Below, piece by piece: positions 43,101-46,100 of a stretch of 64,000 nucleotides of DNA. Source of the DNA: Escherichia coli (GTDB lineage: Bacteria; Pseudomonadota; Gammaproteobacteria; Enterobacterales; Enterobacteriaceae); assembly GCF_029227855.1 (NCBI RefSeq), contig NZ_CP074357.1; one strand, given 5' to 3'. The first letter of the stretch is position 1, and every line of letters begins with the position of its first letter. Made by a program: the position numbers.

Positions 43101-46100
43101 CATCCTTAAAAGTGGAAATGTAGGTTTATGGGTTTATGCATTTTCCTGATGGCCTTGACAACCAAGGATTTCACAGAAATTGTCACAGTGTGAAGCTGTA
43201 ACAAAGCGCTCTCCACGTTCGAATCGCTCAACCAAATCCTTTCTTACTTCACTTCCAGGTTTCTGGAAGATGTACTCAAGCTGGAGATCCTCGGCCGTAG
43301 AAAGTAGTCGTTCTATGCTGAAATCAACATGGTAAAAGCAAAACTGATTATCAACCGGGGGAAAGTTGCTTTTGGTACTGTTCTCGTTTTTGGATTTTAG
43401 TTCATTCATGAGCTCTCCTTGGTTGAGAACAGTATACAAATCTCTTTAGGGATTTTTTTTCGTTAATAGCACTTTTTTGAGTTTAAAGAGTATGTTCATA
43501 CCAGAGCATTAGAGGCTACGAAAAGGATAATGGAATTAGAAAGATAGATTTTAAGTGGTGATGTAAGGTGGGATAGGTAGAAGAGGAGTAGACGCTTGTA
43601 AGCGAGGCAAAAAAAAGGCACGGAAACCGTGCCATAAGAGTATGTGAGAAAAAATCAAAATCAGGGAAAGAATCAAGCAGCTTGTGAAACTGAATCTCCA
43701 ACTGCAAGATTTAAATTTCTTAGGTTATCGAAAACTTCAGATACTAAGTCATTACGGTCGTGGATTTTAATCCGCCCACCGGTTAACTCTGAAACATAAA
43801 CGGTATGGCAGAGGTCAGTAACCACTTCGCCGTATTCATCAACGACTTCCAAAGATGCAATCATCGGAATATAAGAAGCCGCAGCATAGCTCTCATAAAT
43901 ACTTATTATGGAGTCATTGTTGCGTCGAGAAATTACCCTACCAGAAGGTAAAGCCTCATCTTCCATATAGCAATCAGATAGGTCCTCACAGAAGTCATTT
44001 TCTTTAAGTGAAATATTAAGGGTCAATTCACTGTTGATAGAGCGTGAATAAGAATATTCACTCAGTTTATAGCAAGCCAAACTAATATCACTAAAAGTTT
44101 CATAAGCTTTATAGAGGCTCGATGTTATAGACTCAGATACAAATGTTATTAGTCCAATAAAATGAGTATCCCAGAACTGTTGCAAAGCAAAACGGGCAAT
44201 CATAACCTGACCATCAACCTGCATCAGTCTGTTATATTCATCCCGGTCATAACCTTTCGACTGAGAAACATCATTAGACATGCTAAGAACTTCACTACAA
44301 ACATCATCATATTCAAAACGACTAGTTGCAAAGTGTTTTCCTGAAATTTCAAGGTACTGACCAGAGACTGCGTCAAACACCTCAAGAAAGTAACAGAGTC
44401 GCGATTTTAAAGATTCTCTGTTTAAAGCTTCTATTTCATTCTCAGAGATACTATCGACATATAAATCAACAGCATTCTTGAGTTCAATAGCTTTGATATT
44501 ACAGGTAAAAGAAAGCTCGTCACTTTGACAATGGCAAACACTTAATACTATATCCGCCTCATCAAAATCTATGCCAAGATAACTCAGAACTGCTCGGACA
44601 TAGTTTTTATCATCAGATGAATGTGTCATATACACTACCTCGAATTTGAGAGGAAGTGCCCCAGAAGGGAAGCGACTTCCCCACTGGGTTAGATAAAAAT
44701 TTGGTTAAGCTAAAAGAAGATGCCAGCGACAGATTTTACATTGTCATAGACAAGTGTCTTCAGCCAACCAAAGTTACTTTTTTGGACTGAAGCAAAAGGA
44801 TCATTGAGACGCGTTACGAAAATCGTCAAAAGCTTCAGTTATTAGTAATGTGCGATCAGTTACTCTGTATCGGTCATTACTTTCGAGAGATACGTAAGTT
44901 GAATGCGAAGAATCACAGACAACACGCCCTCTTTTATTGATCAATCTTACTTCCATCATCACCGGCACATTGATAATTGAAGCAACATCGGTATAGAGGG
45001 ATATGAGGGCATCATTGTCACAATATAACGCCCCGTTCCCATCAAATGTATCGTTAAACTTAATATATATATCTGGCATATTTGCCGGATAATCATCAGT
45101 ATTGAAATCAATGCATAACTTTAAGTCATCATTAATACGGCGATTAATCTTATGCTGCCCTACACGTACAAAGCCATGTTCAACAGCTTTGATAATCCTT
45201 AAAGTTTCATTAAGACAATCTGTAATTCTTTTCTCGACAAATGAGATAAAGTCACCAAAGTCGGAATGAAAAAACTGTTTAAGTGCAAATTTCGCAACTA
45301 ACACTTTCCCATCCACCTTCATTTTATCGAGATAAAGATTTCTTATAGCATCAGTAGAAGAATTAGCTTTAGATAACTCTTCACAGTCATTAATAATCAT
45401 TGAAACAATATCAATAACTTTAACTGGGCTTAAAGTATTACTATATCCGCGAATATCAAACGTAAAAAATCCGAAATTCTTAAATACTCCAAGAAAATAA
45501 ATTATTTTTTGTTTCAAAAGAATAGAATCGGAGTAAGATGCGTTGTGCTTTATTAGCTCAGATATGTAGAGATCCAACATACAATTTAAATTATCGATAT
45601 CTACATCGTAATCAAAGGTTACTTTGTCGAACGAAGTATCAGATAATTGAACGGTTATATCGTCAGCGGAAACATTAAGGCCTAAATTTTGATAAAGAAA
45701 GGCACTAACAAATTCCACGTGGTCAGATTCTTTAAACATTTACACTACCTCATGACTAAAAAGGAAGTGCTTCCCACCGGGAAGCAGGTTCCCGGATGGG
45801 TTAGATTAATTATAAAAGAGTTCTTCAGAAGGTACATGCATTTCTGGTTTGAACTGTTTTAAGGAGTTGTTTATAGCTTTTCGATATAACCCTGAAGAGT
45901 GTGGCTTAAACATTTGATATTCCGTAACGAGCAGAGGAGACGTAAAGCATCCTAAGTTCACTAGTGAAATACTTGATGTTTCTTCACAAACATCTAATTC
46001 AGCGTATATCCGCCTCTTCATTACCCTGCCTGCTAAATAGCGACGAACATGATTTATAAACTTGTCCGCATCTGATATAGAATTAACTATATAATCAGAT

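Follow-up and report, generated by a model that had tools for sequence, protein, structure and literature searches.

A family of two-hairpin modules between the genes of an IncHI plasmid operon, predicted to act as bistable translational attenuators

Two neighbouring paralogous genes on an Escherichia coli plasmid (assembly GCF_029227855.1, contig NZ_CP074357.1) are each preceded by a leader with the same end motifs and different, perfectly paired internal stems, which raises the question of what these leaders are and what keeps them paired. The window, a stretch of 64,000 nucleotides, is IncHI2 plasmid backbone, and all genes at 43.6-58.3 kb are carried on its minus strand. Paralogues A and B are genes 15 and 14 of a 15-gene array that sits downstream of trhI in IncHI plasmids; this operon comes after trhN-trhI, where the Tra2 region ends, rather than after oriT, and is conserved in four IncHI-type lineages. 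Proteins A and B are 27% identical (related at E 5e-38), and the only other detectable kinship among the operon proteins is between genes 12 and 13 (E 5e-7). No informative PADLOC or PHROG family was found for the operon proteins tested, A and B included, and no Pfam match was found for protein B. A phage origin was rejected, with no match in the phage collection. A toprim-domain protein is among the operon products.

Table 1. Coordinates of genes, leaders and modules in the window. R2, second-round covariance model; hp1 and hp2, first and second hairpin.
Feature	Position	Strand	Details
Paralogue A (gene 15)	43673-44629	-	ATG at 44627-44629
Paralogue B (gene 14)	44801-45739	-	ATG at 45737-45739
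Gene 13	45806-46726	-	adjoins leader B upstream; TAA at 45806-45808
Canonical intrinsic terminator	43617..43633	-	GGCACGG-UUU-CCGUGCC then U8; 40 nt past gene A
Leader A hp1	44660..44688	-	CCCAG-U-GGGGAAG-UCG-CUUCCCU-U-CUGGG
Leader A SD mimic (a), upper 5' arm and loop of hp1	44672-44682	-	GGGGAAGUCGC; complementary to anti-SD
Leader A hp2	44632..44659	-	anti-SD arm GCACUUCCUC (44650-44659) : SD arm GAGGUAGUGU (44632-44641)
Leader B hp1	45773..45800	-	CCCA-U-CCGGGAA-CCUGC-UUCCCGG-UGGG
Leader B hp2	45742..45770	-	anti-SD arm GCACUUCCUU (45761-45770) : SD arm GAGGUAGUGU (45742-45751)
Leader B shifted alternative hairpin	45768-45786	-	UGCUUCCC-GGU-GGGAAGCA, then CUUCCUUUUU
Module before gene 13	46724..46787	-	R2 55.3 bits, E 2.6e-14; folds
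Module before gene 12	47728..47796	-	R2 60.5 bits
Module before gene 11	48677..48736	-	weak model score (R2 E 0.059); two-hairpin fold kept in orthologues
Module before gene 10	49277..49346	-	R2 28 bits, E 5e-6
Module before gene 8 (73-aa ORF)	51115..51185	-	R2 24.4 bits, E 6e-5
Module before gene 7 (VWA-domain protein)	53199..53264	-	R2 58.7 bits
Module before gene 6 (DUF3150)	54404..54469	-	R2 58.7 bits; shifted register is a 14-bp hairpin then U8
Variant module before gene 3	56866..56923	-	R2 E 0.002
Module before gene 2	57304..57369	-	R2 26.4 bits, E 1.6e-5; hp1 1 nt past upstream stop codon

Read in the sense of the mRNA, each of leaders A and B consists of two abutting hairpins, a GC-clamped hp1 (CCCA..GGGAA..UUCCC..UGGG) and an hp2 in which an anti-SD, GCACUUCC, is paired with the SD region, GAGGUAGUGU (Table 1). 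The first-pass annotation had recorded these two tracts as GGAAGTGC (44652-44659 and 45763-45770) and as the ACACTACCTC leader shared by both genes (44632-44641 and 45742-45751, directly 5' of the ATGs at 44629 and 45739 when read with the genes). Both lie where it had placed them, and they are more than the conserved flanks it took them for, pairing with each other and burying the SD in the second hairpin. The internal stems (GGGAAG-CGA-CTTCCC and CCGGGAA-GCAGG-TTCCCGG) are present as described, and GGGTTAGAT is present in both elements (44686-44694 and 45798-45806); this calls for two small coordinate corrections, the true ends lying 6 nt past the 44688 and 45800 first assigned. Single short motifs are within chance (for example, 3 occurrences of GGAAGTGC observed vs 1.9 expected); their collinear order upstream of two genes 27% identical as proteins is not chance. 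RNAfold gave MFEs of -32.4 kcal/mol (z -5.0) and -27.7 kcal/mol (z -3.7) for leaders A and B, respectively, with 0 of 200 shuffles equally good for either, and the minimum predicted unpaired probability of a base in the leader A SD core is 4e-5 at 37 C. The hp1 of leader B begins 5 nt past the stop codon of the upstream gene.

The two leaders of this plasmid are 67% identical and each is 67-72% identical to its own IncHI1 orthologue; to judge from sequence, gene conversion between them looks to account for part of their end-to-end similarity. The A/B covariance model (CM) scores the A/B leaders of three plasmid lineages at 70-82 bits and other modules at no more than 38 bits, which bears out the earlier proposal that the two leaders are homologues, passed on together with the duplicated genes, and the pair would be one sub-lineage of a larger family.

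That family is not restricted to the paralogue pair and is found operon-wide before non-homologous genes (DUF3150, VWA, small ORFs and others). The first CM, built from six A/B leaders, gave 22 leader matches at E < 5e-4, each of them in the sense orientation and before the next operon cistron, and CM scores for leaders were 50-75 bits (E = 1e-12 to 1e-25). The second-round model (R2), run with filters off, found 11 modules in the 64-kb window, in the operon only, with matches that stop on base 3 of the following start codon; in a complete 157-kb IncHI2 plasmid, CM matches were again confined to the same operon. At least 11 two-hairpin modules thus lie between the genes of one 15-gene IncHI operon, each filling a 57-80 nt stop-to-start gap, and the same two-hairpin grammar is seen at most array junctions. 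Modules are also present at the orthologous junctions of IncHI1, IncHI1B and pKpNDM1-type plasmids, with different primary sequence. In all leaders but one, where the spacing is 4 nt, hp1 and hp2 are 0-2 nt apart. On its 3' side the anti-SD invariably pairs with the SD, which ends 0-7 nt from the ATG, and the base of hp1 is the best-conserved part of otherwise differing modules, with nearly invariant CCC and GGG columns. The sequence upstream of hp1 is AU-rich and single-stranded, and the hp2 loop is U-rich. Rfam 15 gave 0 matches in the window at the gathering threshold and nothing meaningful at permissive E-values (best, ssNA-helicase at the gene 10 hp1, 23.4 bits vs gathering 41.5, E 0.7), and no description of these elements was found in Rfam or in the papers searched.

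Covariation had been claimed from the two copies as compensatory change, and that two-copy case is thin, with an identical GGGAA/UUCCC core that is extended in copy A by one G-C pair next to the loop and in copy B by two basal C-G pairs; covariation is nevertheless real once orthologues and other modules are added. Across 22 sequences, 89.6% of hp1/hp2 cells are paired and 16 of 19 pairs have two-sided changes, counts biased towards hp1/hp2 by a CM alignment fitted to that structure, and the covariation score is 0.547 vs 0.214 in shuffles (0/500), with slid controls at no more than 0.168. Variable columns among orthologues make up 17.5% in stems vs 39% outside stems, a comparison that is shallow because only three well-separated lineages in the plasmid collection carry the A/B pair. 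Folding and covariance analysis of homologous leaders, proposed earlier as a check, thus finds the pairing kept, and its conservation in IncHI1, IncHI1B and pKpNDM1-type plasmids upholds the view that it is under selection.

A third helix, between the upper 5' arm and loop of hp1 (a) and the anti-SD (b), is mutually exclusive with hp1 and hp2 and is predicted to make the module bistable. The a:b duplex of leader A has an energy of -10.7 kcal/mol. Anti-SDs bind their own hp1 at -9.9 kcal/mol vs -5.6 kcal/mol for the hp1 of other modules, the other two plasmids being similar, and this preference was matched in 0 of 20000 permutations in each of the three plasmids. Third-helix covariation, read from an alignment not fitted to that helix, is 84.8% vs 71.3% paired, with a score of 0.376 vs 0.187 (0/500). 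Three-way covariation is seen in the gene 12 module, which has GGGGAUCAC / GUGAUCCC / GAGGAUCAC here vs GGGGAUUAC / GUAAUCCC / GAGGAUUAC in the other two lineages, and in the gene 3 variant an a:b hairpin (GGGGAGAAAUCCC / GGGAUUUCUCC) competes directly with b:SD. Mutually exclusive helices, with an alternative pairing that frees the SD, are accordingly a predicted property of the modules.

We favour, at a probability of roughly 0.6, the reading that the modules are bistable intercistronic translational attenuators that would be off at equilibrium, and we infer from the folding models that they repress translation in vivo. Each module carries six alternating C/G tracts (C1 G2 C3 G4 C5 G6). At equilibrium, in register 1, C1:G4 and G2:C3 would form hp1, and C5 (the anti-SD) with G6 (the SD region) the abutting hp2; with the SD so paired, the 30S subunit would not load and the cistron would be off. 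In register 2, G2 and the hp1 loop would pair with the anti-SD and C3 with G4, leaving C1 and the SD free and the cistron on. Since C1 is needed by register 1 and not by register 2, occupation of the 5' edge of the module should favour an exposed SD. The folding models are consistent with this in the median: P(SD open) is 0.017 without masking, 0.275 when 6 nt at the hp1 5' edge are masked, and again 0.017 when the mask covers the entire a segment. In leader B, masking the first 6 nt of hp1 raises P(SD open) from 0.013 to 0.445, whereas leader A of this plasmid is still closed when its 5' tract is masked (P from 0.002 to 0.009). When the SD segment is left out and unconstrained folds only are compared, 12 of 27 leaders have register 2 level with or ahead of hp1 as the MFE.

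The most likely occupant of the 5' edge would be a ribosome finishing the upstream cistron, with its stop codon 0-12 nt off, and the short interval during transcription in which the SD has yet to be made could act likewise; cistrons along the operon would then be translationally coupled or attenuated through mRNA structure. The upstream ribosome as trigger is a tentative proposal that we hold to be somewhat improbable on these models. Of 10 module positions, 6 have hp1 starting 0-12 nt past the stop codon; the distance fits a ribosome trigger poorly at genes 7, 11 and 13 (16-24 nt, for gene 13 in two lineages) and at genes 10 and 15 (more than 40 nt, leader A included). A terminating ribosome at 9-12 nt, given the size of ribosome footprints, probably abuts hp1 rather than unwinding it. 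Still more doubtful is the extended form of the proposal, in which the modules are a chain of ribosome-sensing relays, the C/G sliding switch signalling arrival at the upstream stop across 50-60 nt to the next SD, and the operon is translated as an obligatory domino from one accessible first cistron. If so, an untranslated operon would be silent and probably Rho-terminated, minimising plasmid cost.

Other functions were weighed against translational attenuation. A U-run follows register 2 in about half of the modules, so transcription termination is possible instead of SD exposure, and the modules could be leaky intrinsic terminators or transcriptional attenuators in which the shifted hairpin and U-run stop RNA polymerase between cistrons and hp1 serves as antiterminator, expression stepping down along the operon or depending on ribosome-polymerase coupling. 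A terminator scan gave 27 sites in the region vs 11.6 expected, among them the shifted hairpins of genes 6 and 14 along with further module hairpins, and U5-U8 follows register 2 at genes 6, 7, 12 and 14 of IncHI2, the gene 12 U-run being kept in all three lineages. We nonetheless consider such a role unlikely: leader A, the leader B orthologues and genes 8, 10, 11 and 13 have no U-run or one that is not conserved, the terminator would usually be forestalled by hp1, which folds earlier, and a termination role leaves unexplained why the anti-SD invariably pairs on its 3' side with the SD, 0-7 nt from the ATG. As for the pair itself, no intrinsic terminator of standard form was found in either leader, hp1 running into the anti-SD and not into U's; the U5 run occurs only after the copy B shifted hairpin, is not conserved in the IncHI1 and IncHI1B orthologues and is absent in copy A, so a plain terminator is unlikely, as the first-pass annotation had argued from the lack of a U-tract in one copy. 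Processing or stability elements, with RNase E or RNase III cutting in or beside the hairpins and hp1 acting as a protective 5' or 3' stem-loop that sets the half-life of each cistron separately, as at the RNase III sites of T7 early genes, would suit the AU-rich single-stranded sequence before hp1, the U-rich hp2 loop and the abutment of hp1 and hp2, which could stack into ~20 bp; a related Aeromonas plasmid also has different small hairpins, without SD pairing, at the same intergenic positions. Processing does not account for the conserved pairing of anti-SD with SD or for the specific complementarity of hp1 to the anti-SD, and could coexist with translational control without replacing it; as the principal function it seems improbable.

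The hp1 base, with its ACCC(A/U)...(A/U)GGG pattern and nearly invariant CCC/GGG columns, might instead be read by a factor of plasmid or host origin (an RNA-binding protein, a helicase or a small RNA) that turns on every cistron at once, like phage Mu Com on mom mRNA. One factor acting on ~12 sites would account for an operon-wide family, and SD opening is predicted upon masking of the hp1 5' tract, but no candidate was found, the tested operon proteins having no informative Pfam, PADLOC or PHROG matches, and the conserved CCC/GGG may be a mere GC clamp; we give this little credence. IncHI conjugation and many R27 genes are thermoregulated (PMC7366339), and the SD is paired here as in ROSE and fourU, so RNA thermometers whose hp2 melts or closes with temperature were considered. 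Between 20 and 42 C, predicted opening of the SD core does not exceed 0.005, with hp2 at -8 to -14 kcal/mol, Rfam thermometer families gave no match, at gathering threshold or weak, and a zipper thermometer does not require an hp1-to-anti-SD helix. A simple zipper thermometer was discounted on the predicted melting, and thermometers in general are very improbable. Most improbable of all is action at the DNA level (a cruciform, a single-strand hairpin for priming or transfer, or a protein operator) or a set of chance palindromes. The hairpins do fold on both strands, with weak model matches on the antisense strand, and the operon encodes the toprim-domain protein; however, strong matches are all on the sense strand, where G-U pairs are used, window matches end at start codons, the SD is always in the 3' arm, and chance palindromes are excluded by shuffles and covariation. 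Leading-region or oriT-adjacent ssDNA elements (Frpo/ssi-like) were rejected, the operon lying after trhN-trhI and not oriT, and the 3' arm always containing the SD. Leader-peptide attenuation was likewise discarded, since the gap is wholly taken by hp1 and hp2 and no conserved ORF was found; the sole ATG inside an hp1 (gene 12) lacks an SD and is not kept in orthologues. An H-type pseudoknot of the hp1 loop with the anti-SD was set aside on geometric inference, the linker being mostly 0-2 nt. No plus-strand promoter-like site was found at the A and B leaders.

Translational attenuation by paired hairpins has precedents. The ermC and cat translational attenuators have an off state of two hairpins, the second burying the SD, with an inter-hairpin helix that frees the SD and ribosome input on the 5' side. 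The modules here share the two hairpins, the SD buried in the second and an alternative helix freeing it, but they are without the leader-peptide ORF with its own SD found in ermC and cat, their alternative helix uses the hp1 5' arm and loop rather than the 3' arm of hairpin 1, and they occur as ~12 copies in one operon rather than one per resistance gene. For repZ (repA) of IncI-alpha/IncB plasmids, a stem-loop (structure III) sequesters the SD and translation of the repY/repB leader triggers an activating pseudoknot. Likenesses are the plasmid location, the sequestered SD and an upstream hairpin loop complementary to the 5' arm of the SD-sequestering stem, which was tested and found here; in repZ, however, the hairpins are ~100 nt apart and the pseudoknot coexists with hairpin I, whereas here they abut and the alternative helix excludes hp1. 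In addition, an antisense RNA targets the repZ loop, while none is evident here, and the genes here are not replication genes. In MS2 coat-replicase, rpmI-rplT and the atp operon, a downstream SD closed by mRNA structure is opened through upstream translation; closure is predicted here too, but in those systems the ribosome unwinds the inhibitory helix directly, whereas here that helix lies 30-60 nt past the stop and a relay by register shift would be required. Structured elements between cistrons set translation of the next gene at phage T7 early-region RNase III sites and in the phage Mu com/mom translation-inhibition structure, and here too such elements lie between cistrons of a mobile element, with an hp1 shorter than a classical RNase III substrate. 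As repeated intergenic palindromes co-transcribed with operons, the modules also recall REP/BIME, ERIC and Correia-type repeats; those are genome-wide, in both orientations and of high identity, whereas the modules are in one operon and one orientation, SD-fused and of low identity. No copies suggesting REP/ERIC/MITE-like dispersal were found outside the operon in the 64-kb window or the 157-kb plasmid.

Resistance genes carried by IncHI plasmids include mcr-1, carbapenemase genes and the multidrug-resistance genes of typhoid. A single operon with about twelve covarying, bistable modules that sequester the SD would amount to unusually dense post-transcriptional control on a plasmid. The arrangement suggests that translation of the operon genes is shut off unless some specific condition is present, a point of relevance to plasmid cost and establishment. 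The family would also provide many natural replicates of one RNA switch design in varied sequences, useful for work on RNA refolding and translational coupling.

Two cruder measures compare the array with the rest of the window. SD accessibility is modestly lower in the array than at other window genes (0.33 vs 0.44, p 0.02), and a loose two-hairpin detector gave weak matches at 11 of 50 other window genes, 0 of them reaching -23 kcal/mol, an energy reached by 10 of 14 in the array. By fold scan, two-hairpin detector and CM search of the window, no modules were found downstream of the canonical intrinsic terminator past gene A, and this terminator is likely the 3' end of the module-bearing operon.

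The leaders of genes A and B, minus-strand paralogues that are genes 15 and 14 of a 15-gene array, are members of an operon-wide family of modules predicted to be bistable and to sequester the Shine-Dalgarno (SD) sequence. The first-pass annotation had described these two leaders as structured, under selection and co-duplicated; that part of its interpretation is supported, but the feature itself extends well beyond the two leaders and is of another sort. The 3.5 kb round the finding are 100% identical to >1000 IncHI2 plasmids of Enterobacteriaceae, and no phage match to this region was found. 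In annotated relatives every gene from 38.9 to 60.4 kb is encoded on the minus strand, downstream of trhN-trhI where the Tra2 transfer region ends; the elements therefore have to be interpreted in minus-strand sense.

The A and B proteins share 27% amino-acid identity (E 5e-38). The leader motifs quoted in the first-pass annotation are all present, but GGGTTAGAT extends 6 nt past each of the ends that it gave. Taken singly, each short motif could be expected by chance; their collinear occurrence before two very diverged paralogues could not. Leaders A and B are 67% identical, equal to the likeness of each to its own IncHI1 orthologue, and fold as sense RNA into two abutting hairpins (MFE -32.4 and -27.7 kcal/mol; z -5.0 and -3.7, respectively). 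The first hairpin, hp1, consists of what had been taken as an internal stem plus an outer CCCA/UGGG stem. The supposed flanks base-pair together, GCACUUCCU(C/U) (complement of GGAAGTGC) with GAGGUAGUGU (complement of ACACTACCTC), and the GAGGUAGUGU segment, whose 3' end is 2 nt before the ATG, includes the SD; the conserved ends thus form an anti-SD:SD hairpin, hp2. In these leaders the SD core is predicted to be open with a probability of ~1e-4 or less at 37 C.

When every intergenic region in the array was folded, most showed this two-hairpin grammar: a GC-clamped hairpin starting ~ACCC(A/U) and then, 0-2 nt further on (4 nt in a single leader), a second one with the SD as its 3' arm. This grammar is kept, with different primary sequence, at orthologous junctions of an IncHI1 plasmid (L002), an IncHI1B-type plasmid (L004) and pKpNDM1 (L005), the last of which has a DUF3150 protein only ~40% identical and no paralogue array. 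A covariance model trained on six A/B leaders only (R1) retrieved 22 leaders at E < 5e-4, every one of them in sense orientation. The second-round model (R2), scanned with filters off on both strands of the entire window, picked out 11 modules on the sense strand, all of which end with the third base of the following start codon; the only other hits were weak antisense matches to these hairpins. Covariance model searches of the complete 157-kb IncHI2 plasmid gave no matches outside the module-bearing operon, which is bounded by two terminator-like elements (see table). The modules precede DUF3150, VWA-domain and several unrelated ORFs, so gene duplication alone does not explain their spread. 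No Rfam family matches them; a weak, sub-threshold match to RF03070 (ssNA-helicase motif) at 49314-49339 (minus), on hp1 of the gene 10 module (23.4 bits vs a gathering score of 41.5, E 0.7), is probably chance.

Coordinates of genes, modules and limits (window positions unless stated)
Feature	Position	Strand	Remark
Gene A	43673-44629	minus	paralogue of B
Gene B	44801-45739	minus	paralogue of A
R2 modules	before gene starts 44629, 45739, 46726, 47730, 48679, 49279, 51117, 53201, 54406, 56868, 57306	minus	found with R2
Terminator-like hairpin after trhI	58373-58390		one limit of module-bearing stretch
Canonical terminator	43617-43633	minus	40 nt past gene A; other limit of module-bearing stretch
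pAeme5 repeated leader	before genes at 7700, 12174, 15215, 15881, 17451, 17969, 18519 (NZ_CP038449.1)		intergenic

The A/B leaders are a sub-lineage of their own within the family, with R1 scores of 70-82 bits vs <=38 for other modules, which supports co-duplication of these two leaders with their genes. Leaders A and B of the window plasmid have derived states in common, AUCUAACCCA and GAGGUAGUGUA (44627-44694 and 45737-45806 vs L002 and L004), of which GAGGUAGUGUA puts a U-U mismatch into hp2 of both; IncHI1 has GAGGAAGUGAA in both. These comparisons suggest gene conversion between the leaders, 1.1 kb apart.

In the 22-sequence alignment, standard pairs fill 89.6% of cells vs 71.2% in shuffles, both-sided changes occur at 16 of 19 pairs, and the covariation score is 0.547 vs 0.214 shuffled (0/500; slid controls <=0.168), figures that are somewhat inflated by fitting the alignment to the model. 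Among orthologue triplets aligned with MAFFT, 17.5% of stem columns are variable vs 39% of non-stem columns; 27 pairs show compatible change, and 34 are disrupted in one or more sequences, in part via alignment shifts.

Every module also has the potential for a third helix, as the upper 5' arm and loop of hp1 ('a') is SD-like and complementary to the anti-SD ('b'). The three-way match at gene 12 reads GGGGAUCAC / GUGAUCCC / GAGGAUCAC in IncHI2 vs GGGGAUUAC / GUAAUCCC / GAGGAUUAC in the other two lineages. Mean a:b duplex energies within modules are -9.9, -10.2 and -11.5 kcal/mol vs -5.6 to -6.6 for mismatched modules, and 0/20000 permutations reach the observed value in each of three plasmids. 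Counted on a covariance model alignment blind to it, this helix is 84.8% paired vs 71.3% shuffled, with a covariation score of 0.376 vs 0.187 (0/500; slid controls <=0.212). It is incompatible with hp2 and with the upper stem of hp1; once it forms, the hp1 3' arm refolds on the G-tract at the hp1 base to give a shifted hairpin, register 2, which is the MFE structure or ties with hp1 for it in 12/27 leaders when the SD segment is omitted.

The module may be viewed as six alternating tracts, C1 G2 C3 G4 C5 G6. Register 1 (C1:G4, G2:C3, C5:G6; three helices) would be the equilibrium state with the SD closed, and register 2 (G2:C5, C3:G4; two helices) would leave C1 and the SD free, such that taking C1 out of play would balance the two. 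With the first 6 nt of hp1 masked, partition function calculations put the median P(SD open) at 0.275 instead of 0.017, and the value for leader B at 0.445 instead of 0.013. The SD remained closed when all of 'a' was masked, and hence the a:b complementarity does the work. The obvious candidate for the masking agent would be a ribosome terminating the upstream cistron, whose stop codon is 0-12 nt from hp1 at 6/10 module positions (5 nt for leader B). Within this model such a ribosome cannot be the whole story, because the distance is 16-24 nt in some modules and >40 nt for genes 10 and 15 (leader A included), and leader A of the window plasmid did not flip in the masking calculation. A second, ribosome-free route to 'on' is conceivable: until the SD has been made, registers 1 and 2 often differ little in energy, so that nascent transcripts could split between the two and provide a transient translatable fraction.

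Other roles were considered, namely leaky terminators or attenuators (in roughly half of the modules register 2 precedes a U-run and resembles a terminator), processing or stability elements, and binding of a trans-acting factor at the conserved CCC/GGG base; the U-rich loop of hp2 might just as well be a site for ribosomal protein S1 or for ribosome standby. An RNA thermometer is disfavoured by the predicted melting, and a DNA-level role by strand specificity, G-U pairs and the fixed link to the SD. The logic of SD-sequestering modules is like that of translational attenuators and structure-mediated translational coupling, and the nearest plasmid precedent is IncI-alpha/IncB repZ control, in which the loop of an upstream hairpin base-pairs to the 5' side of the stem that sequesters the SD. 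Unlike translational attenuators or repZ-type control, the modules have no leader peptide, pseudoknot geometry or evident antisense RNA, and lacking these defining features they fall outside the attenuator, coupling and repZ-type families. Full-text literature searches found no description of them, which is no proof of novelty.

An in-frame TGA at 46975-46977 (minus) cuts gene 12 into ORFs of 256 and 58 aa, and the gene 13 module is located after the downstream piece. The orthologue is intact (311 aa) in IncHI1, IncHI1B and another IncHI2 plasmid (pLD67-1-157kb, WP_000691118.1), and the TGA is probably a nonsense mutation of this sub-lineage. A long, nearly perfect hairpin at 50801-50859 (minus), upstream of a toprim-domain gene (start 50782), contains an inner stem-loop between its arms GCGUUGUGGGUUUCUC...GAGAAACUCACAAUGC. 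A GC hairpin plus UUUCUU comes before it, and an outer stem pairing CUCUUUCUUA with the SD region UAAGAGAG encloses it. This is a different, larger structured leader than the modules, and is kept in IncHI1, IncHI1B and pKpNDM1 with some paired changes. Aeromonas media pAeme5 (NZ_CP038449.1, 6943-25590) carries a distantly related helicase-toprim-ATPase-DUF3150-VWA array with a different repeated leader, 2-4 tandem UUCG-loop mini-hairpins (AAUCC-UUCG-GGAU AUGAC GCC-UUCG-GGC ...) just upstream of the SD, which is left unpaired. Elsewhere in the window, a 62-nt direct repeat has three plus-strand copies (27838-27899, 29146-29207 and 29864-29925; the second and third 82% and 69% identical to the first) in a run of adjacent plus-strand ORFs that look like diverged tandem paralogues, unrelated to the modules.
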